Virus record (IMG/VR): IMGVR_UViG_3300015374_000004
Coordinates: 5,787 to 69,786 of that record
Source: a virus
DNA: 64,000 nucleotides
Reading direction: 5' to 3' (one strand)
The notes beneath the pieces were generated by a model. The model saw only the letters and a list, made by a program, of their open reading frames with translations, had not been told where the DNA came from and made no database searches. This document shows, in pieces, positions 4,799 through 40,894 of this stretch (positions within the stretch are counted from its first letter, which is position 1; each line of letters opens with the position of its first letter). Made by a program: the position numbers and the translations under genes.

Positions 4799-5256
4799 GC
4801 ATCATGTCCCCCGAGGAGACCCTCGCCTTCGAGAAGCGGGCCTTCCTGGAGAAGGTCAAGGACGGCGTGCCCCGCGTCCATGCGGCCATGGAACTCGGCT
4901 GGTCGCTGCGCAAGTTGGAGCGGCTGCTCCGGGAGCAGGACTTCCTGGAGATGGTCACCGACGTCGAGCAGTACGAGATCGCCGAGGTCGAGATGGTCCT
5001 CCGGGACAAGGCCAAGGCCGGGGCCATGGACGCCATCAAGATGTACCTGCTGAACAAGGCGCCCGAGCGGTGGTCGGAGCGCCGTGAGGTCAACGTCACC
5101 GGCACCTCGGCCGTGATCGTGGCTCACGTCGATGCCACCAGGAGCGCGCTGCGGGAACTGCTGGAGGATCCGTCCGCCAGAGATGCAGCCATCGCTGCGC
5201 TCATGCCCGGCGGTGTGATCGACGCGGAGGTGATCGAGGATGACGACAGCACTTGA
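4795..5256 (+). CDS. terminase small subunit
   Basis: About 153 aa. Shows the helical N-terminal and 'MYLLNKAPERW' features of actinophage TerS. Sits immediately upstream of TerL and overlaps it. Confidence 0.55.
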   Translation: MSIMSPEETLAFEKRAFLEKVKDGVPRVHAAMELGWSLRKLERLLREQDFLEMVTDVEQYEIAEVEMVLRDKAKAGAMDAIKMYLLNKAPERWSERREVNVTGTSAVIVAHVDATRSALRELLEDPSARDAAIAALMPGGVIDAEVIEDDDST

Positions 5257-6757
5257 TCCCAAGGATCAGGTGCGCCTGAGCCACATGGCTCTGCCGTCCC
5301 GCCTCGCCCAGTACGTCAGCAAGGATCTGTTCGGGTTCGAGTGGATTCCCGCGCCGCACATCGCCTACATGGAGCAGCGCGTGCTGGCCAACGTGCTGGA
5401 GCCGAAGAAGACGTTCATCTCCATCTCGATGCCGCCCCGCCACGGCAAGAGCCTGTACTGCTCAGCCGCGCTGGCAGCCTGGTTCCTGGGGATGTACCCC
5501 GAGAAGAACGTCATCCTCGTCACGTACTCGGAGGACTACGCCCTGCGGTACGGCCGTCTGGTGCGTGACATCCTCGCTCGCTACGGCAAGGAGTTGTTCG
5601 GCCGCTCGGTGAGCCGAGGCGCCAACTCGGTGACCGACTGGCAGATGGAGCGATCCCTCGGCGGGATGCTCTCCGTGGGTGTCGGGGGTGGTATCACCGG
5701 GCGTGGTGGTGACCTCATCATCATCGACGACCTGATCAAGAACCAGCAGGAGGCGCGGTCCAACGCCACCAAGTTGTTCCACAAGACAGAGTACGACGCC
5801 TCGATCCGCACCCGGTTGGAGACCGGCGGCACGATCGTTGCAGTCGCTACCCGGTGGGCGATGGACGACCTGCCCGGCCGCTGGCGAGAGATGGACGAGG
5901 CCGGTGACCAGTGGGAGTTCGTCGACTTCCCCTGCATCGCCGAGTGCCCCAAGGACGAAGACCCTGAGATCTGGCGAGATGAACTGGGTCGCAAGGACGG
6001 CGACGCTCTGTGGCCCGCGCGCCTGCCGGTCGAGGAGGCCATGAAGACGAAGGCGTCCATCGAGGAACTCGTGTGGGCCGCCATGTACCAGCAGGATCCC
6101 TCGACCCTGCAGACGGCCATGTTCCCGGCCGACAAGTGGGGCACCTACCCCTGGTACCAGCGCGACGAGGTGATGAAGAAGTGCGTGCGCTTCGTCCGAG
6201 CCTGGGACTTGGCAGCGTCCGAGGAGTCGGGCGACTGGACGGTGGGCGTGTGGATGGGGATGGGCTGGGATGGCCGCATCTACGTCCTCGACGTAGACCG
6301 CTTCCGCTCCGGCCCCACTGAGGTCGAGAACCGGGTGCTCAAGCGGGCCGAGGAGGATGGCGTCAAGACCCACGTCATCATCGAGCAAGAGAAGGCTGGC
6401 TCAGGCAAGACGGTGGTCGCCCACTACGCCCGCGTGCTGATGAACCGTGTGGTCGAGGCGATCCCGGTGACCGGCTCGAAGGATGAGCGCGCCATGATCT
6501 ACGCGGGCAAGATGGGCGCCGGGTTAGTGCTGATCCCCGACGAGATCCACTGGCGCAAGGAGTGGGTCGACGAGCACAAGTTGTTCGGCCGCATCAAGAC
6601 CGACGACCAGGTTGACGCCGCGGCCCACGGCTTCAACTACTTGGCGGACCAGGGCGGCGTGGCGAGGATCTGGTCTCCGGCCGAGATCCCCCTCAACTTC
6701 CACGCCGAGGAGCAACTACGTGCTCTCCTGGAACGAGGGGTGGTGGTGCGGCGCTAG
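5240..6757 (+). CDS. terminase large subunit
   Basis: 505 aa. Walker A-like 'SMPPRHGKS', an ATPase domain and a C-terminal nuclease domain with acidic residues. RBS GGAGGTGA. Confidence 0.8.
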   Translation: MTTALDPKDQVRLSHMALPSRLAQYVSKDLFGFEWIPAPHIAYMEQRVLANVLEPKKTFISISMPPRHGKSLYCSAALAAWFLGMYPEKNVILVTYSEDYALRYGRLVRDILARYGKELFGRSVSRGANSVTDWQMERSLGGMLSVGVGGGITGRGGDLIIIDDLIKNQQEARSNATKLFHKTEYDASIRTRLETGGTIVAVATRWAMDDLPGRWREMDEAGDQWEFVDFPCIAECPKDEDPEIWRDELGRKDGDALWPARLPVEEAMKTKASIEELVWAAMYQQDPSTLQTAMFPADKWGTYPWYQRDEVMKKCVRFVRAWDLAASEESGDWTVGVWMGMGWDGRIYVLDVDRFRSGPTEVENRVLKRAEEDGVKTHVIIEQEKAGSGKTVVAHYARVLMNRVVEAIPVTGSKDERAMIYAGKMGAGLVLIPDEIHWRKEWVDEHKLFGRIKTDDQVDAAAHGFNYLADQGGVARIWSPAEIPLNFHAEEQLRALLERGVVVRR

Positions 6758-9170: not shown

Positions 9171-9390
9171 GTTCCTCCCTGTGGGTGGGGTAGATCGTTC
9201 GGCCAGCGCGGGCCTCGGCTGCCACCAGGGCGCCTTCGTCCCGCAGTTCGCCGACCAAGCGGTGGACGTAGGACAACGTCAGCCCCGTCGCGTCGGCCAG
9301 TTCTCGATAGGTCGGACCGTAGCCATGGCGTGATACATAGAGCAGCACGTGCTCGTACACCTGTTCCATGGAAGCGGCGTGGTTGCGCAT
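9139..9390 (-). CDS. winged-helix transcriptional regulator (LexA/MarR-like DNA-binding domain)
   Basis: 'YGPTYRELADATGLTLSYVHRLVGELRDEGALV' HTH. RBS GGGAGAGAG lies before the ATG. The longer upstream ORF extension is Arg/Pro junk. Confidence 0.55.
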   Translation of the reverse strand: MRNHAASMEQVYEHVLLYVSRHGYGPTYRELADATGLTLSYVHRLVGELRDEGALVAAEARAGRTIYPTHREEHDKDSGVAKG

Positions 9391-9533
9391 CTCTCTCCCT
9401 TCGTGTCCCCGGCGGGGAACCTTCGGCCGACCAATGACCACCAGTGATGGCTGTAGAAACCGTTGACGCCCCCGAGAGGCGCAGGTTCCCCTTCGGGCGG
9501 GATAGGAACCGCCCTGCCAGGGACACGAGGATC

Positions 9534-11111
9534 TTAGAGGTTGCCCAGCGAGAACTCGCTGACCAGCCCCGGCGTGGAGCCGTCGAGGCCCACCAGGTCG
9601 AGGTGGGTGGCGTCGGTCGGATCGGCGATGGTGTACCGGTTCGCGTTCATGGCCACGAACGCCGTCCGAGCGTCGATGCCGGACGTCTCCTTGTAGGCGC
9701 GGAGCGCCTGGTGCGTGTGGATGTCGCCAGCCCACGTCTCGTTGTCCGTCAGGAAGACGAACGTGTCCACGTTCAGGTGCTCCTGCGTGGCCCACAGCAC
9801 CGGGAGGCTGGCGTCGGTCCCGCCACCACCGACCCGAGCGGCGAGCAACGCCTCACGGAGCGAGGACTTCGGGCTCATCGCCAACGGGTACAGCGAGCGG
9901 TCGTAGCCGACCACGGCGCAGTGCTCCTCGGTGGCCAGGGTCACCAGACCCATCGCAGCCCCAGCCTCGCGGCAGGAGATCGGGCTTCCGATGACGTGGT
10001 TGTTCATGGACCCCGACACGTCCAGGCAGATCAGCGTCCGCTTGCCGGACGGCTTGACGGTCTGGAAGGCCAAGGTGAAAGCCTCACCGAGCGCGTCCAC
10101 GATCTTGCCCTCGGGCACCCAGGTCTTGCCGGAGCGGTAGCCCCCGCCAGAACCGTAGACAGCCGAGGCCAGGAGGAACTGCATCGGGTGGACGCGGCCC
10201 CTCTTGATCACGTCGACGTCGGTGAGCCGCTCCACGACCCGCTTCGTGGTGTCGGAGAACGGCGCGATGAGGCCCACCGTGGTCATGGTGGCGAGGTTGC
10301 GCACCATGGCCGTGATCGGCATGTCTTCGAGCAGCGCCTCCCACACAGCGGGCGAGCGCAGCGCCTCGGAAGGCACGGCCTCTCGGGGCAGGCGGTACTG
10401 GCGGATGGCCGAAGCCACCGTCAGATCGTCAGCACCCTTGGACATCTCGAAGCCACGGATGACGTCGGGCAGGTTGCCGTCAGGCGTCTTGCCGACCACC
10501 CAGGCGAGGACGTCGTTGACGCCTCCCTTGGCCACCTCGGGGTGAGCGAGGCGCAGAAGGTCACGCTGAGCCCAGCCGTCTCGCGACTGGTACTTGACCA
10601 TCTGGTAGGCGAGGTTGTCGCTGGTCTTGCCCTCGTACCACCGGGCCACGGCGCGCCGTAGGCCCCGGCCCCAACCCCTGAACTGCTCGACGTAACTCGC
10701 GAACATGAGCAGATGGGAGCCGGTACGGCACACCGTGGCGATGGCGGCCTCGCCAGCCCGGCGGGTGACGGGGTCAGCCGCACCGCAGCAGGCAGCGAGA
10801 GCGAACAGGGTGGCGTTCTGCTTGGGCGCCAGACCCAGTTCGCTGACCAAGGCCAGTTCACGGACAACGCGAGGCCCGTCCGCAGCGATGCAGCGGAGCA
10901 GGACGGTGGCGTTCTCCTTGGTGAGATCGCGCTCGGAGATGTAGGCGGTGCCCCCATCCGTGCCGAGGACCAGGAACCGGCGAAGCCGCATCCAGTCGCT
11001 CGACTCGAAGACGAACCCACCGGCCGTGTTCTGCACCATGTCGGTGCGGGTGGGGTCGGGCTCGCTCTGAGGGGTGGCACGCGTCCCGAAGGCGCGCAGG
11101 GGATCAGTCAT
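9534..11111 (-). CDS. rsr: Ro60-like RNA-binding protein (TROVE domain plus C-terminal vWA with MIDAS)
   Basis: About 525 aa. Helical-repeat TROVE region and a vWA 'LICLDVSGSMN' DxSxS motif. RBS GGAGG 9 nt before the ATG at 11111. Confidence 0.8.
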   Translation of the reverse strand: MTDPLRAFGTRATPQSEPDPTRTDMVQNTAGGFVFESSDWMRLRRFLVLGTDGGTAYISERDLTKENATVLLRCIAADGPRVVRELALVSELGLAPKQNATLFALAACCGAADPVTRRAGEAAIATVCRTGSHLLMFASYVEQFRGWGRGLRRAVARWYEGKTSDNLAYQMVKYQSRDGWAQRDLLRLAHPEVAKGGVNDVLAWVVGKTPDGNLPDVIRGFEMSKGADDLTVASAIRQYRLPREAVPSEALRSPAVWEALLEDMPITAMVRNLATMTTVGLIAPFSDTTKRVVERLTDVDVIKRGRVHPMQFLLASAVYGSGGGYRSGKTWVPEGKIVDALGEAFTLAFQTVKPSGKRTLICLDVSGSMNNHVIGSPISCREAGAAMGLVTLATEEHCAVVGYDRSLYPLAMSPKSSLREALLAARVGGGGTDASLPVLWATQEHLNVDTFVFLTDNETWAGDIHTHQALRAYKETSGIDARTAFVAMNANRYTIADPTDATHLDLVGLDGSTPGLVSEFSLGNL

Positions 11112-11169
11112 GTGGATGTTGCCTCCAGTCAAGTGGTTGACGTCCCGACCAGTTGCATCGAGAACAGGA

Positions 11170-11424
11170 CGCCTCCGGCCCGGAGGGCCAGATCTAACGA
11201 TGCGGTCAAGTGAGTGGTCCGGGGGTCGACCACGGCGAACCGTGGCGGCGGGATTTGAACACCGCTCACTTCTTGCGAAGCGTCATCCAGAGGTAACCCG
11301 AGCCTGTCGGCCCGCATCTATGTCGATGGTCGGATGGTCAAGGGTTGGCTGCGGGAACTGGTTTCATCCAGAGTGAAAGGTAACCCGCTGCCTTCGGCCC
11401 ATCCGAAGTTCTGAGGGACAGTAT
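11170..11424 (-). ncRNA. candidate Y-RNA-like (Yrl) structured ncRNA(s) between tRNA-Cys and rsr
   Basis: Non-coding 325-bp gap upstream of rsr on the same strand. Contains a T-arm-like 'GGTGTTCAAATCCCGCC', a UUCG-tetraloop hairpin (CCACGG-TTCG-CCGTGG), a cloverleaf-like closing stem AAGTGAG/CTCACTT, three copies of 'ACTCACT(T/G)GACC' and a duplicated 'CGGGTTACCT..CTGGATGA' module. Flanked by a TATACT -10 and a GC hairpin. Confidence 0.35.
11172..11187 (-). terminator. GC hairpin (CCTCCGG/CCGGAGG) downstream of the structured RNA and upstream of rsr
   Basis: Inverted repeat followed on the minus strand by CGTCCTGTTCTCG. Confidence 0.3.
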
Positions 11425-11457
11425 ACTGGAGACTGCTCACCGGTCCAGTGAGTTTCG

Positions 11458-11528
11458 AGGGGTGGGCCGGACTCGAACCGGCGTAGTCCGCTTTGCAGGC
11501 GGACGTCTAGCCACTCGACCACCACCCC
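11458..11528 (-). tRNA. tRNA-Cys (anticodon GCA)
   Basis: Minus strand 5'-GGGGTGG..TCCGC-CTGCAAA-GCGGA..GCCGG-TTCGAGT-CCGGC-CCACCCC-T. 7-bp acceptor, anticodon loop CUGCAAA, T-loop TTCGAGT. 71 nt, no encoded CCA. Confidence 0.8.
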
Positions 11529-11533
11529 GGTAG

Positions 11534-11998
11534 TCAGCCGTGAAAGGTTGCCCAGGCCCCGTACCCCGCACGGCTCCACACGTCGTACGCAGCGTTGGCG
11601 CACGCCTGCGGGTCGTAGAGCAGGTCGTACATGGACGCCTGGATGATCCCCAGCGCCAGGAGCCGCTTCTGGTGGGCGGTCCTGTTGATCTGCCACCAGC
11701 AGAAGTCATGCGTCGGCGAGACGGCCGTGAGCGTGTCCTGGGACTCCCGCCAGCAGAGCGCCGACATGACGGCCCACTGGCTCCGGGCGAACCCGGCATC
11801 CCGGAAGTATGGGTAGGCATCGGCACATGGCCGCCCGGCCGTGTCCTCAGCCTCCTCCGCGTTGAACTGGGCGACGACCTCATCGACCTTCTCTTGGCCG
11901 ATGATAGGAAGCCACTCGAAGTACCTGTTCATCTGGTTGAACGTGCAGGATGAGCAGGTCAGCACGATCACGAAGGCTGCAGCGATTGCTCGCTTCAT
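11534..11998 (-). CDS. lysozyme-like / SLT-domain lipoprotein (peptidoglycan hydrolase candidate)
   Basis: Signal peptide plus lipobox 'VLTCSSC'. 'CWRESQ...FCWWQIN' resembles the SLT/lysozyme-like E-S...Q motifs. RBS TAAGGAGAGGAAC. Confidence 0.5.
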   Translation of the reverse strand: MKRAIAAAFVIVLTCSSCTFNQMNRYFEWLPIIGQEKVDEVVAQFNAEEAEDTAGRPCADAYPYFRDAGFARSQWAVMSALCWRESQDTLTAVSPTHDFCWWQINRTAHQKRLLALGIIQASMYDLLYDPQACANAAYDVWSRAGYGAWATFHG

Positions 11999-12019
11999 GT
12001 TCCTCTCCTTACGCGCAAA

Positions 12020-12040
12020 CGCCCAGGAAAGACCTGGGCG
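12020..12040 (-). terminator. intrinsic terminator hairpin CGCCCAGG-tcttt-CCTGGGCG followed by TTTGCGCG
   Basis: Perfect 8-bp stem with a U-rich tail on the minus strand, between the 12081 gene and the lipoprotein RBS. Confidence 0.45.
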
Positions 12041-12080
12041 TCGCGCCAGGCTAGTCCGGCCCTGTCACTGGATGAAGTGA

Positions 12081-12296
12081 TCAGGCGGTGGGCCGGGAGC
12101 CTCTCCGTGGCGACGTTGGGGATGGATCGGGTTCTAACCAGTCGCATGTGTTGTCACCCCATTCGTGGTTGCAGGTGTGGTCGATGCCGACCAGCAGGAC
12201 GTGGCGCAGGCGGTTGACGGGCTTCTGCATCCGACAGACGGTGCAGACGATCCAGTCGTGGTCTGTGGTCCGGCGTCCTGGAAGGCGGATCATCAT
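12081..12296 (-). CDS. small Cys/His-rich protein (putative zinc-binding)
   Basis: 'CTVCRMQK...HTCNHEWGDNTCDW'. RBS GGAAGGA. Confidence 0.45.
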   Translation of the reverse strand: MMIRLPGRRTTDHDWIVCTVCRMQKPVNRLRHVLLVGIDHTCNHEWGDNTCDWLEPDPSPTSPRRGSRPTA

Positions 12297-14921: not shown

Positions 14922-16265
14922 TCACTCCCTTGCTCCGGCGGGTAGTTCCAGGAGGCCGCCCTCGATGAGTTCGAGGCGGCGCTCGAAGTAGGCGCCGAGA
15001 TCTTCCTCGTCGTTGGGCTCCAACGTGTCGGAGATCACGATGATCTCGTCGTCGGCGGCGTCGTCAGGATGGGTCAACCCCTGCAGGTGCTCGGTGATGG
15101 CTGCGGCGTCGGCGGCCTGCTCGGCGTCGTAGTTGTCCACGGTGATGACCCTGGACAGGTCAGCCACCTTGTCGAGACCGTCGCACTGGATGTACCTGGT
15201 GGACAGCCTGTCGATGGGGACGACCACGTCGTCGACGACGGTGTAAGGGTCCAGCGAGATCATCACCGTCGCCAGCACTCGGCCGACATCGGTGATGATG
15301 CCGGGGAGCGGATCACGCCGCATCCCGTCGTCGCCCTTGTGGGGACGGAACCAGATCTTGTTCCCGACCACGAGGTCGTCCTCGCTGATCGGCTTGTCGT
15401 TGGCCAGGACGCTCTTCGGCTCGTCGGCCGGTTTCGTGGCCGAGGTGGTGCCTCGGTTCCACTCGATCCAGTCGTCGTCGTCGTGGCTCCAACCGCCAGC
15501 GGTGTAGGTGCTGGTGTAGGAGCGGCGGGTGTAGCCCCACGTGTCGGGGATCTCGAACTTGTCCCAGAGGAGGAAGTCGAACGTGTCCCCGTTGTACGAG
15601 CCGATGAAGCCTTCCTCGGCTTCCTCGGGCTTCGTGTCGGTCGGCTCGTTCAGGTAGATGAGACCTGCCTGGACAGCGCCAGGAGTCGAGCCGAACATGA
15701 GTGAGCCGTTCTGGCTCATGGCGTAGCAGAGGGGCGAGCCCTCGCCGCGAGCCATGTTGAGCACCAGAGGCTCTCGGACGTCGATCCACGCCGTCGCCAT
15801 GTGACCCTCGATGAGGCCCAGGGCCTCCTTCGGATCTTCGACGTTGGCCAGGGCAGCGAAGATCGCCTCGGAGTCAACCTCGGCGTACTGCGGCCACCGC
15901 TTGGCGGCGAACAAGCGCTTGTCGTTGTTCACCCACCCGTTGTGGATGCCGATGATGTGACCCGACTGGACCGGATGGTTGTTCCGGTTCACCAGCGGGT
16001 CGCCCTGAGTCGCCAGTCGGGTGTGGATGAGGGCCAAGCGAGCGCCCTCTCCGATTCCCGGCCTGCTGTCGAAGAACTGGCCCGCGGCAACGGGGGCCTT
16101 CGACAACTTGACTCGACCGCTCGCTGACACCCGAACGACGCCTGTGGCGTCGCGGCCTCGATGCTCGATCGAGAGGCCCATCGTGCGCACCATCCTTGCG
16201 ATGCGCGACGGGTCGAGGTCGGCGTAGTCGAGCGGCGACAGGACAAAGCCTGCGATTCCGCACAT
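14922..16265 (-). CDS. class II (Ntn) glutamine amidotransferase domain protein with an acidic C-terminal domain
   Basis: 'MCGIAGFV' places the nucleophile Cys at position 2, so the start must be at 16265 rather than the upstream Met. 'GIHNGWVNN' also present. Confidence 0.65.
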   Translation of the reverse strand: MCGIAGFVLSPLDYADLDPSRIARMVRTMGLSIEHRGRDATGVVRVSASGRVKLSKAPVAAGQFFDSRPGIGEGARLALIHTRLATQGDPLVNRNNHPVQSGHIIGIHNGWVNNDKRLFAAKRWPQYAEVDSEAIFAALANVEDPKEALGLIEGHMATAWIDVREPLVLNMARGEGSPLCYAMSQNGSLMFGSTPGAVQAGLIYLNEPTDTKPEEAEEGFIGSYNGDTFDFLLWDKFEIPDTWGYTRRSYTSTYTAGGWSHDDDDWIEWNRGTTSATKPADEPKSVLANDKPISEDDLVVGNKIWFRPHKGDDGMRRDPLPGIITDVGRVLATVMISLDPYTVVDDVVVPIDRLSTRYIQCDGLDKVADLSRVITVDNYDAEQAADAAAITEHLQGLTHPDDAADDEIIVISDTLEPNDEEDLGAYFERRLELIEGGLLELPAGARE

Positions 16266-16322
16266 GTGTTCTATGTGCCTCACTTTCTGCGGGATCCACC
16301 CGCGGTAGGACACGTGTCCGTG

Positions 16323-38969: not shown

Positions 38970-39386
38970 GGGGCGTGCCGTCTATGCGACGCGTGGACTC
39001 CGCGAGTCATCCTCGAGCGGACCCGAGGGGTGTGCGAGTCCTGCGTGAGCCAAGGGCTGACGTCCCGGCCGATACGCGTCAAGATGGGTGGGGCGCCAGT
39101 CGTTGTTTCCACCCGGCGCTGGCGCTCCACCAAGGGCAGGAAGACGAACCGCAACGCAGTGCGTGCTGCCCACACCGCGGCGATGAAGCGTCTGCGTGAC
39201 GCCTTCCCCGAGATCTACCGGCTGATCTACATGGAGGAGCGGGCCAAGCGTGGCCTGCAGCCGGTGCCGATCGACCTGCCCTGCCTCGATCACGAGCGCC
39301 ATGCTCGGGAGATGGCGGCTGCCGGGGTGGACTTCGACATGGATGCTGTGGTCGGCGCTCTGCGTGACGCCGGGATCGAGGACTGA
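38952..39386 (+). CDS. hypothetical Cys-rich protein (zinc-finger)
   Basis: 'CRLCDAW...CESC'. Confidence 0.35.
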   Translation: MEILAHGACRLCDAWTPRVILERTRGVCESCVSQGLTSRPIRVKMGGAPVVVSTRRWRSTKGRKTNRNAVRAAHTAAMKRLRDAFPEIYRLIYMEERAKRGLQPVPIDLPCLDHERHAREMAAAGVDFDMDAVVGALRDAGIED

Positions 39387-40894
39387 TGGTCACGTTCAGG
39401 ACGCGCAAGCAGCAGCCCGAGGTAACGATCGCCTCGACCCGCATCCAGAACCCCAACCAGTTGATCCGCTCCCGGCCGTCGTTCTCTGTCACCGACCAGC
39501 GGGCGTGGACCTGGTACGACCGGATCGGCGAGGTCCACTTCGGGCTCAACAACGGAGCGCGCGAGTGCTCCCGAGCGAACCTGATGGCCGTCAAGTGGAA
39601 CAGCCCCGACGACTTCACCGAGCAGTCCGGCTACCCCCAGGATCTCGTGATGTCGCTCCAGTCGGAGCACGGCGGCACCCCCACCCTCATCAGCCGGTAC
39701 TACCTGAACTCCAAGGTGACCGGCGACGGCTACATCTACGGCTTCCCGGAGGCTCCAGAGTCCCCGTACATGTGGTTCGACTTCCTCTCCACGGACGAGT
39801 TGCAGTCCTCGAACGCTGTCGACCCGAACGCCCCGATCTGGCGTGTCCGCCAGCCGGAGGCCACTGGCACCACCGTCGACAACAAGCAGGTCGTCAACCT
39901 CAACACCGACATCCTGATCCGGCTCTGGAACCCGCACCCCCGGTACTCCAACGTGGCCGACTCGTCACTCAAGGCGCTGGACCTGATCTGCGAGGAACTC
40001 GACCTCCTGACTCAGTCCCTCAAGGCGAAGATCACCTCCCGCCTGGCGATGGCCGGGATCCTCTACATCGCCGACCGGCTCCAGATCGTGCCGACCGAAC
40101 CGCCCAACGGCGACCCCAACCGGCTCAGCGAAGACCCGCTGATGGACTACATCATCCAGATGTTCACCACGGCGATCATGCACCCGGACGAGCCCTCGGC
40201 GATCATGCCGATCCTCCTCCGTGGCCCGCAGGCCGAGGTCGACCAGTTGATCAAGTGGATCCCGCTCGACAGGGAGATCTTCGCCACTGACATCTCCCAG
40301 CGCGACGAACTCATCAAGCGCATCCTCCACGGCCTCGATCTCCGGCCCGAGCAGGTCGAGGGCTTCTCGGAGTCCAACCACTGGTCGGCGTGGTCGACAC
40401 AGGACGTCCACCTCAAGGTCGACGTCACCCCGGACCTGGTGGCGCTCTGCTGGGCGCTCACCAAGGACTTCCTCTGGCCGCAGTTGCTTGAGTCCCCCGA
40501 CTTCACCGACAAGGCCAACGTCAGGGACTACTCGCTGTGGTTCGACCTGGCCAACCTAACCGTGCGGCCGAACCGCACCGAGGAGTTCAACCAGTTGGCC
40601 GCGGGCGCCGCCGTGAGCCGTGCCGCCCAGCGCGCCGCAGCCTCCGTGCAGGAGGAGGACGCCCCCGACGACATCGAAGAAGTGCGCATGATCGGATGGA
40701 AGACGGGTGACCCGTACTTGTTCCTCTGGAAGAACCCCGAGGCCGAGGAGATCGACTTCACGAAGATCAAGGGGGCATCGCCGCCAGGCCCGGATCCGAG
40801 CACCGCGCCGGATAGTTCGGTGGGTCCAGGTAATGACAGGGGCGCTCCTGGGGCGGGAGACTCAAACGCACCGCGGTCAGAGCAGCCGCAGTAA
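39386..40894 (+). CDS. portal protein
   Basis: 502 aa. Its position heads the structural module. Acidic/Gly-Pro-rich C-terminus. Confidence 0.55.
   Translation: MVTFRTRKQQPEVTIASTRIQNPNQLIRSRPSFSVTDQRAWTWYDRIGEVHFGLNNGARECSRANLMAVKWNSPDDFTEQSGYPQDLVMSLQSEHGGTPTLISRYYLNSKVTGDGYIYGFPEAPESPYMWFDFLSTDELQSSNAVDPNAPIWRVRQPEATGTTVDNKQVVNLNTDILIRLWNPHPRYSNVADSSLKALDLICEELDLLTQSLKAKITSRLAMAGILYIADRLQIVPTEPPNGDPNRLSEDPLMDYIIQMFTTAIMHPDEPSAIMPILLRGPQAEVDQLIKWIPLDREIFATDISQRDELIKRILHGLDLRPEQVEGFSESNHWSAWSTQDVHLKVDVTPDLVALCWALTKDFLWPQLLESPDFTDKANVRDYSLWFDLANLTVRPNRTEEFNQLAAGAAVSRAAQRAAASVQEEDAPDDIEEVRMIGWKTGDPYLFLWKNPEAEEIDFTKIKGASPPGPDPSTAPDSSVGPGNDRGAPGAGDSNAPRSEQPQ

Follow-up and report, generated by a model that had tools for sequence, protein, structure and literature searches.

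A probable Ro60 ribonucleoprotein cassette with three tandem Y-RNA-like modules in an uncultured actinophage-like virus

Introduction

Does a phage that encodes its own Ro60 protein also encode the Y RNAs that such a protein would bind? The question is raised by a locus in the IMG/VR virus record IMGVR_UViG_3300015374_000004, within a stretch of 64,000 nucleotides (nt; positions 5,787 to 69,786 of the record) that is called the window here. A Ro60 gene, rsr, lies on the minus strand of the window, and it is preceded on that strand by a non-coding gap and a gene for tRNA-Cys(GCA). A first-pass annotation, made by inspection of the sequence, had proposed that this phage carries Ro60 beside a tRNA together with Y-RNA-like RNAs of its own. 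That central claim is upheld, as the TROVE protein domain and two covariance models for Y RNAs, R1 and R2, all find matches at the locus, which is probably a phage Ro60 ribonucleoprotein cassette with Y RNAs.

In Deinococcus and Salmonella, Ro60 has PNPase as its partner in a machine that degrades structured RNA. Pedulla and coworkers are said to have described Ro60 in mycobacteriophages in 2003. According to Chen et al. 2014 (PMC4201824), YrlA-like RNAs are found beside Ro60 in 254 bacteria and 22 phages, which removes the novelty that the first-pass annotation had implied. The Ro60 of Thermus phage phiLo was found to bind two Yrl RNAs from upstream of its gene and to assemble with the PNPase of the host in vitro, and capture of host PNPase was proposed for that phage (PMC12135203, 2025). 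The pairing of Ro60 with Y RNAs is therefore already known from mycobacteriophages and bacteria, and the window is a further example of it rather than a new kind of system.

A full-length Ro60

The rsr reading frame matches the Pfam families TROVE (PF05731; E 4.2e-44, 151.9 bits against a cut-off of 23) and vWA_Ro60 (PF25045; E 2.1e-48). Its product also aligns end to end with proteins of solved structure: residues 5-524 with residues 8-533 of Rsr from Deinococcus radiodurans (2NVO; E 1e-108), residues 17-522 with residues 7-535 of Xenopus laevis Ro60 (1YVP; E 4e-105), and the full length of the protein with human RO60 (9NEN). The Ro60 of phiLo is not among the PDB sequence matches at E<=0.001. 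The MIDAS motif DVSGSM (MIDAS denotes an adhesion site dependent on metal ions), which had been read in the vWA domain, is encoded there and aligned with LDVSGSM in Rsr and IDVSASM in Xenopus Ro60, such that D364-V-S-G-S368 supplies the DxSxS of the MIDAS. Lysine, arginine and histidine are kept at the positions aligned to K170, R174 and H187 of X. laevis Ro60; we take K170 and R174 to belong to the Y-RNA-binding surface, and H187 to the central cavity, of vertebrate Ro60. The assignment of the minus-strand gene as a phage ortholog of Ro60 is thus sound, and by these alignments its product is a full-length Ro60/Rsr.

Three modules of a conserved family

Ro60 loci for comparison were taken from IMG/VR (14), metagenomes (80) and genomes (67), along with GenBank phages and the closest proteins of a set of 5.8 billion proteins. 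Upstream of Ro60 a unit recurs that consists of a terminal stem, the motif GNYCGR, an inner stem ending in GGUUAYC, a variable apex, the complement of the inner stem, an internal loop, and a 3' strand. The 3' strand is of the type ACUUGACC, ACUUAUCC or ACAUGUCU and pairs with the 5' motif so as to leave one C bulged. Counts of the composite 5' motif are 126 in the 69.6 kb that precede Ro60 genes and 12 in 155.8 kb of coding sequence for Ro60, about a 23-fold enrichment.

The covariance model R1 has a 17-pair structure and was built from a seed alignment of 19 short units, all from other phage and metagenome Ro60 loci and none from the window. In the seed, 90% of the cells are paired, as opposed to 34-47% when the 3' partners are slid by one to three columns, and compensatory changes on both sides occur in 16 of the 17 pairs. 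A search of the whole window with filters off gives exactly three significant matches, with E values from 1e-10 to 2e-5. The three sit in the gap, each on the strand of rsr, and they are called Y-A, Y-B and Y-C in order from the tRNA to rsr. Each aligns to the full 72 positions of R1 and has its helix paired, and the next matches have E values of 0.11 (antisense to the tRNA-Cys) and 0.35 (inside the terminase gene). The 5' motif GGGCCGR-NN-G-N6-GTTMYC is likewise present three times in the window, each time in the gap, with 0.56 occurrences expected. The true repeat of the gap is the Y module.

Across the family, matches to R1 keep to one strand. At E<=0.01, 97 phage and metagenome loci and the window give 110 matches, mostly as one to five tandem units ahead of the Ro60 gene, and all 110 are on the Ro60 strand. 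Their alignment, which is itself fitted to R1, is 90.3% paired, versus 34-46% when slid. The same holds for 65 bacterial loci (79 of 79 matches), for a total of 189 of 189 over 163 Ro60 loci. The window modules lie 9-295 nt upstream of rsr on its strand, well inside the 4 kb used as a limit by Chen et al. 2014 (PMC4201824). The matches to R1, the strand bias and the covariation therefore identify the three elements, at the level of sequence comparison, as ordinary Y RNAs of the bacterial and phage family that these authors described.

A second model, R2, was built from 14 phage and metagenome YrlA sequences, and Y-B is its sole window match below E 0.1 (26.3 bits, E ~3e-4). In a permissive Rfam scan of the minus strand, the Y_RNA family (RF00019) scores 19.7 bits at 11328-11404 and the nematode sbRNA family (ceN72-3, RF01656) scores 28.4 bits at 11331-11406, both of them at Y-A and both with gathering thresholds of 38; the nematode model also scores 16.3 bits at 11199-11319 (-), which is Y-B. 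The first-pass annotation had looked to covariance models for support, and the support came from R1 at all three modules and from R2 at Y-B, whereas the Rfam Y_RNA match is sub-threshold. The features of the locus and of the wider window are collected in Table 1.

Table 1. Coordinates of features in the window, with the evidence for each
Feature	Position	Strand	Evidence or remark
rsr/Ro60 coding sequence	9534..11111	(-)	525 aa, ATG at 11111, stop included; Pfam and structure alignment
MIDAS motif DVSGSM, aa 364-369 of the vWA domain	10005..10022	(-)	direct reading of sequence
Y-C, Y-RNA-like module abutting rsr	11120..11187	(-)	R1 43.6 bits, E 4.6e-8
rsr Shine-Dalgarno sequence GGAGG, in outer-stem 3' strand of Y-C	11122..11126	(-)	10 nt before ATG
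Anti-Shine-Dalgarno sequence CCUCC, partner of the rsr Shine-Dalgarno sequence	11182-11186	(-)	
Alternative hairpin UCUGGCCC-UCC-GGGCCGGA	11174..11192	(-)	minimum-free-energy element of extended fold
Y-B, YrlA-like, Y stem around a 65-nt interior with three hairpins	11199..11319	(-)	R1 32.5 bits, E 2e-5
Y-A, short minimal Y RNA	11329..11406	(-)	R1 54.3 bits, E 1.4e-10
Sigma-70-like promoter candidate TGGACC-16-TATACT, between tRNA and Y-A	11420..11447	(-)	prediction
tRNA-Cys(GCA), sole tRNA in window	11457..11528	(-)	ARAGORN; Rfam tRNA 63.4 bits
Lysozyme-like (SLT_3) open reading frame, upstream neighbour	11534..11998	(-)	Pfam SLT_3 4.8e-5, below curated cut-off
Large terminase	5240-6757		
Portal	39386-40894		
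Tape measure, 2012 aa	48327-54365		

Anatomy of the modules

Each module is predicted to fold into a Y core, in which the 5' and 3' ends pair in a terminal stem, followed by a bulged helix and an inner stem that leads into GUUAYC. The bulged helix, in which GGGC[C]GR pairs with YUUGAC, is where Ro60 binds in the Y RNAs of animals and of Deinococcus. The apices differ: that of Y-A is minimal, that of Y-B is a reduced tRNA-like domain without a D arm, and Y-C abuts the start of rsr.

In Y-A, the outer stem UCGGAUGG/CCAUCCGA and the inner stem GGCAGCGGG/CCCGCAGCC are followed by UUACC and a small apical hairpin. Its GCCGAAG is an exact copy of the GNCGAAG motif, and the bulged helix pairs with CUUGACC. 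The minimum-free-energy fold of Y-A is the model fold, with z = -3.0. The first-pass annotation had missed this best-scoring module, whose 3' strand CCCUUGACC is absent from the repeat copies listed there, and it had both the number and the borders of the RNAs wrong.

Y-B has UUAC after its inner stem, in keeping with the YUAY that opens the V region of YrlA, and three hairpins in its interior, all of which are present in its minimum-free-energy fold. The first is the V hairpin CUUC-GCAA-GAAG (11269-11280). The second is a T-arm-like hairpin, GCGG(U)G-UUCAAAU-CCCGC (11248-11265), whose loop has the canonical 7 nt and whose 5-bp stem includes one bulged U; in the YrlA alignment it falls in the columns of the T loop, and so Y-B has the conserved T stem-loop of YrlA. 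The third is a 7-bp, UUCG-capped, acceptor-like stem, GCCACGG-UUCG-CCGUGGU (11229-11246). In the canonical YrlA RNAs of relatives, including that of the closest relative, locus L019, the D arm GUAGCUCAG..GAGC follows. T-like hairpins without a D arm are also found in a few other loci, such as L191 and L011. With respect to the GNCGAAN0-1G motif, GCCGAAG in Y-A conforms, while GCCGACAG in Y-B and GCCGGAG in Y-C are each one base off; CGGA is common in phage modules. According to Chen et al. 2014 (PMC4201824), Yrn1 is without a full D arm and the YrlB of M. smegmatis has a T arm, so Y-B falls within known variation.

Y-C pairs CCUCC with GGAGG in its outer stem, GGGC[C]GG with UUGACU in its bulged helix, and GGCGUCC with GGACGUC in its inner stem, and it has UGUUCUC in place of GGUUAYC. 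Homologues of Y-C with compensatory changes are found in five related loci (L019, L020, L223, L224 and L225). The 22 nt at its 5' terminus, GAUCUGGCCCUCCGGGCCGGAG, and its 3' strand are identical in L019, and the inner stem differs with compensation.

Proposed function and points against it

In the proposed cassette, a tRNA-Cys gene and a probable promoter would be followed on the minus strand by Y-A, Y-B and Y-C in tandem and then by rsr. The ring of the phage Ro60 would first bind the bulged helix of the Y RNAs, and it is likely that the window phage has such Ro60-bound Y RNAs. The variable apical modules would then tether Ro60 to host partners, such that the three RNAs may act as three apical adaptors; precedents are the complexes of Ro60, Y RNA and PNPase in Deinococcus and Salmonella and the phiLo complex in vitro. 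Finally, 3'-5' RNA decay in the host, or the handling of structured RNA, would be redirected during infection, and such retargeting of host exoribonucleases is the likeliest role for a Ro-RNP supplied by the phage. We infer the transcription of the modules, their binding by Ro60, the identity of a partner protein and the benefit to the phage.

Several points weigh against this reading. The step that involves PNPase is drawn wholly by analogy and is only tentative. The closest Ro60 relative in the set of 5.8 billion proteins is 58% identical, and the phage is uncultured. The seed modules of R1 were chosen by eye. At gathering thresholds, Rfam finds the tRNA alone and no family is reached for the Y modules. 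The single-sequence folds of Y-B and Y-C are no better than those of shuffled sequences (z = -1.5 and -1.1), and their minimum-free-energy folds are partly unlike the model fold. When R2 is aligned to Y-B, the interior has low posterior probability and a shifted register, with the UUCG hairpin threaded onto the position of the D arm. The D arm itself, GUAGCUCAG..GAGC, which defines the tRNA elbow of YrlA, was not found in Y-B.

Some of these points can be qualified. A control scan with Rfam 15 covered six other Ro60 loci, and for the four of them from GenBank phages (Cashline, Sparky, FuzzBuster and Cali) no upstream Y element was flagged; the missing gathering-level match for the window therefore says little. 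The nematode model does exceed its gathering threshold on a short module of a metagenomic phage locus, L002 (40.4 bits). Given that single-sequence folding supports Y-A alone, the argument for Y RNAs rests on the comparative evidence, and given the low posterior and misregistered alignment of R2, Y-B is called YrlA-like and not YrlA.

Could Y-C be a leader of the rsr mRNA?

The Shine-Dalgarno sequence of rsr is located inside the 3' strand of the outer stem of Y-C, and this arrangement suggests, without proving, that Ro60 regulates its own synthesis. Y-C might then be mainly a cis-acting leader of the rsr mRNA and not a free Y RNA, with Ro60 bound to the Y fold repressing its own translation. 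Such a leader would be bistable: the Y fold buries the Shine-Dalgarno sequence in the terminal stem, whereas an upstream hairpin would take the Ro-binding strand and leave the Shine-Dalgarno sequence exposed. It would resemble ribosomal-protein leaders that mimic rRNA, and Ro60 would adjust its own output by favouring one fold. The candidate upstream hairpin has 8 bp, between 11185-11192 and 11174-11181, and leaves the anti-Shine-Dalgarno sequence in its loop; in the predicted fold, it would sequester the Ro-binding 5' strand of Y-C.

The arrangement is shared and covaries. Between the end of the last module and the start codon there are 3-9 nt in the window and in L019, L020, L223, L224 and L225, whose Ro60 proteins are 51-58% identical to that of the window, and the Shine-Dalgarno sequence is inside the outer-stem 3' strand in these six and in FuzzBuster (L017). 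The anti-Shine-Dalgarno sequence changes along with its partner (CCUCC/GGAGG, CUUCC/GGAGG, CCCC/GGAG and UCUUUC/GAAAGG), and the pair is CCCUUC/GAAAGG in FuzzBuster, an unrelated Microbacterium phage. Upstream, GAUCUGGCC(C) is kept in four of the five closest relatives (GAACCGGCC in L020) and can form base pairs with the Ro-binding strand GGGCCGGA. Under constrained folding, the two states differ little in energy in each of the six clade members, at -27.8 to -34.0 kcal/mol for the Y fold and -26.8 to -32.2 kcal/mol with the Shine-Dalgarno sequence free. Among phage and metagenome loci, Ro-proximal modules have stronger upstream hairpins of the kind that sequesters the Ro motif than other modules do (median -10.3 versus -4.4 kcal/mol, p = 2e-5), although this statistic ignores the relatedness of the sequences.

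However, the Shine-Dalgarno sequence necessarily falls in the terminal stem of any module that directly adjoins the start codon, and so compaction alone could explain the overlap with Y-C. In most loci the Shine-Dalgarno sequence is 5-30 nt beyond the last module. Alternatively, the upstream hairpin might serve the Y RNAs that precede it, as their terminator or processing signal, and a full-text literature search found no report of Ro60 autoregulation. The enrichment of strong hairpins was not convincingly replicated at 65 bacterial loci (p = 0.05, and the fraction with a paired motif was not higher), which lowered the probability assigned to a switch. A role for Y-C mainly as a leader is therefore rather unlikely, and Y-C is preferred as a member of the array of Y RNAs.

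The cloverleaf and the decayed gap

The first-pass annotation had read 11208-11271 as a cloverleaf tRNA mimic closed by a stem of AAGUGAG with CUCACUU, in a gap with three Ro-binding strands of the form ACUCACUKGACC. Much of what was pointed to is there: the heptamers AAGTGAG (11265-11271) and CTCACTT (11208-11214) exist, and between them lie the T-arm-like GGTGTTCAAATCCCGCC (11247-11263) and the UUCG hairpin (11229-11246), both of which are parts of Y-B. The closing stem, however, has no comparative support. In constrained folding it is 2.8 kcal/mol worse than the minimum-free-energy fold, and forcing it removes the V and T-like hairpins. It also overlaps the UU of the family-wide bulged helix, and in the YrlA of L019 the corresponding segments, by inspection, are not complementary.

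The motif copies fare similarly. Only two of the three copies of ACTCACT(T/G)GACC, at 11204-11215 and 11442-11453, are exact copies of ACTCACTKGACC. The copy at 11204-11215 is the 3' strand of Y-B, but the one listed first, "ACTCACTGGACC" at 11442-11453, lies just 3' of the tRNA, overlaps the promoter-like -35 element and is in no module. The supposed third copy, CCACTTGACTGGAGG at 11122-11136, has more than two mismatches to the 12-mer, and yet it is the 3' strand of a genuine module, Y-C. With up to two mismatches allowed, the 12-mer occurs 10 times in the window, as compared to 13 +/- 4 by chance. The cloverleaf with its three strands is thus very improbable.

The least probable alternative, which hardly needs to be entertained, is that the gap consists of the decayed remains of tRNAs or Y RNAs, or of short open reading frames, without RNA function, with Ro60 acting alone or with host RNAs: the bulged T stem and missing D arm of Y-B could reflect decay, and minus-strand reading frames of 62 aa (11129-11317) and 40 aa (11318-11440) can be drawn, but three independent R1 matches retain intact paired stems, Y-C keeps its identical 5' end and compensated inner stem relative to L019 even though the Ro60 proteins are 58% identical, and the strand bias of the family is complete.

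The gap, the tRNA and a candidate promoter

The presence of tRNA-Cys(GCA) upstream of rsr on the same strand, part of the first-pass annotation, is agreed on by ARAGORN and Rfam. The gap was correctly called non-coding, but it measures 345 nt (11112-11456) from the tRNA to the ATG; the 325 nt given for it fit a longer reading frame initiated at TTG. A tRNA is also immediately upstream in Sparky, in L008 and, by inspection, in L021.

The site TGGACC-16-TATACT is the only promoter-like site within 9300-12100. L019 and L020 have TATACT or TATACA before the first module, which lends mild support from sequence to a probable promoter ahead of Y-A. A 7-bp hairpin, CUCACUG-GAC-CGGUGAG, lies between the 3' end of the tRNA and the predicted -10 box (window 11412-11456 (-)), and a hairpin directly ahead of TATACT or TATACA is found in L019 and L020 as well. 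Possible roles for it are the termination of upstream transcription, processing, or a contribution to the promoter context.

Two weak R1 matches and one pattern search were set aside. The reverse complement of the tRNA-Cys (11458-11527 (+)), GGGCCGGA...CACUCGACC, is the fourth-best R1 match, with 16.6 bits and E 0.11; it is probably due to chance, and may be an echo of the tRNA ancestry that has been proposed for Y RNAs. A match at 6237-6322 (-), antisense inside the terminase reading frame (14.5 bits, E 0.35), was judged to be chance. The loose pattern GGGCCGGAGN{30,60}CTTGAC finds 120 loci over viral contigs, and these are taken as chance because none encodes Ro60 by tblastn.

Relation to known systems

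Mycobacteriophages of cluster C1 (Bxz1, ET08 and Cali) resemble the window in that Ro60 is accompanied by several same-strand Y modules in the upstream gap, with a terminal stem, a GNCGR motif and a GGUUAYC core. In Cali there are two short R1 modules and, by inspection, a canonical YrlA between them; Chen et al. 2014 (PMC4201824) had already reported YrlA-like RNAs for mycobacteriophages of the Cali type. In contrast to these phages, whose Ro60 is about 43% identical and which share no nucleotide similarity with the window, the window has an animal-like CUUGAC in its 3' strand and not CAUGUC, its tRNA-like module is without a D arm, and its last module contains the Shine-Dalgarno sequence.

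In bacteria, the YrlA and YrlB RNAs of Salmonella and M. smegmatis and the Yrn1 and Yrn2 RNAs of D. radiodurans provide at least two Y RNAs beside rsr on the same strand, one of them with tRNA-like elements. Chen et al. 2014 (PMC4201824) describe multiple Y RNAs per species and a tRNA gene within the cluster, Yrn2-tRNA-Asp-Yrn1, which is a single precursor in Deinococcus. Unlike the bacterial RNAs, Y-B has no D stem-loop, and its motif is GCCGACAG and not GNCGAA. The phiLo system also combines a phage Ro60 with Y-like RNAs, Yrl1 and Yrl2, directly upstream, but it belongs to an unrelated phage lineage and has two modules as opposed to three.

Metazoan Y RNAs and nematode sbRNAs share with the window the bulged helix, GGUC[C]GA/UUGACC in animals and GGGC[C]GA/UUGACC in the window, as well as GGGUUAYC after the inner stem, and they give the partial Rfam matches. 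Both of those matches are below gathering thresholds, however, and the window differs in a G.A mismatch in the helix, in having no oligo-U or La tail context and in its setting in a prokaryotic virus. The features in which the window varies from the known systems are the D-arm-less tRNA-like module, the animal-like CUUGAC strand and the proximal module in which the Shine-Dalgarno sequence is embedded.

Unannotated and rearranged Y elements were also seen at other Ro60 loci. Cashline, Sparky, FuzzBuster and Cali (L015-L018) have gaps of 350-650 nt upstream of their Ro-like genes in which the Y modules are unannotated, and in Sparky a 45-aa "hypothetical protein" is annotated (locus 1855-1992) just downstream of a Y module (locus 1764-1837). 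L009 (2703-2832) and L011 (2640-2769) carry, upstream of their own Ro60 genes, circularly permuted, tRNA-shaped Y RNAs with an open acceptor stem of 8-9 bp, a D arm and a T arm. A long arm replaces the anticodon arm and carries the Y motifs in the order 3' strand, loop, 5' strand. The Rfam tRNA model spans 121 nt in L009 (47 bits), and ARAGORN reports a "tRNA-Tyr" in L011. The permuted form was not found in the available portion of Chen et al. 2014 (PMC4201824).

Phage context and relatives

The virus is an uncultured, actinophage-like phage. The window is phage DNA that encodes a large terminase, a portal, a tape measure, tail proteins, Erf, a RecE-like exonuclease and a glutamine amidotransferase, with the Erf and RecE-like exonuclease genes just downstream of rsr. 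About 33 kb, with leftward early or recombination genes, lie between the terminase and the portal. A siphovirus-like layout does not usually have this spacing; the window may extend across the genome ends or reflect a permuted assembly.

Its relatives are distant. Neither the locus nor 25 kb of the window gave a nucleotide relative by megablast against 50,697 GenBank phage records, and the portal is at most 28% identical to actinophage portals. A scan of a genome collection for a host or prophage found no relative above 49% identity. By tblastn, 365 GenBank phage records have a Ro60 homologue (212 from phages of Mycobacterium, 115 of Streptomyces, 17 of Gordonia, and others), all less than 60% identical to that of the window; among the matches listed, the annotation is Ro-like or RNA-binding protein. 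Synteny with the window is seen in L019, via the glutamine amidotransferase, and in L020, via Erf and an SLT gene that is directly upstream of the Y modules and Ro60. Because Erf and SLT are common to the window and L020, and the glutamine amidotransferase to the window and L019, gene content points to an undescribed group of related uncultured phages. In this shared content, Its glutamine amidotransferase member is a neighbour of rsr in the window (14922-16313 (-)) as well as in L019 (3637-4911).

Implications

With the window, phages that combine Ro60 with Y RNAs, a pairing already known, gain a divergent, uncultured representative. The anatomy obtained for it is cleaner than what annotation pipelines deliver, and the picture of Ro60 biology is unchanged by it. 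R1, which has no wrong-strand match among 189, could seed an Rfam family. The D-arm-less Y-B, together with the circularly permuted, tRNA-shaped forms found elsewhere, suggests that the tRNA-like module is freely remodelled. The Shine-Dalgarno sequence within the stem of Y-C provides a concrete, testable hypothesis for Ro60 autoregulation; if it is true, a Y RNA would be a cis-regulatory element, and an evolutionary link between free Y RNAs and autoregulatory leaders would be suggested.

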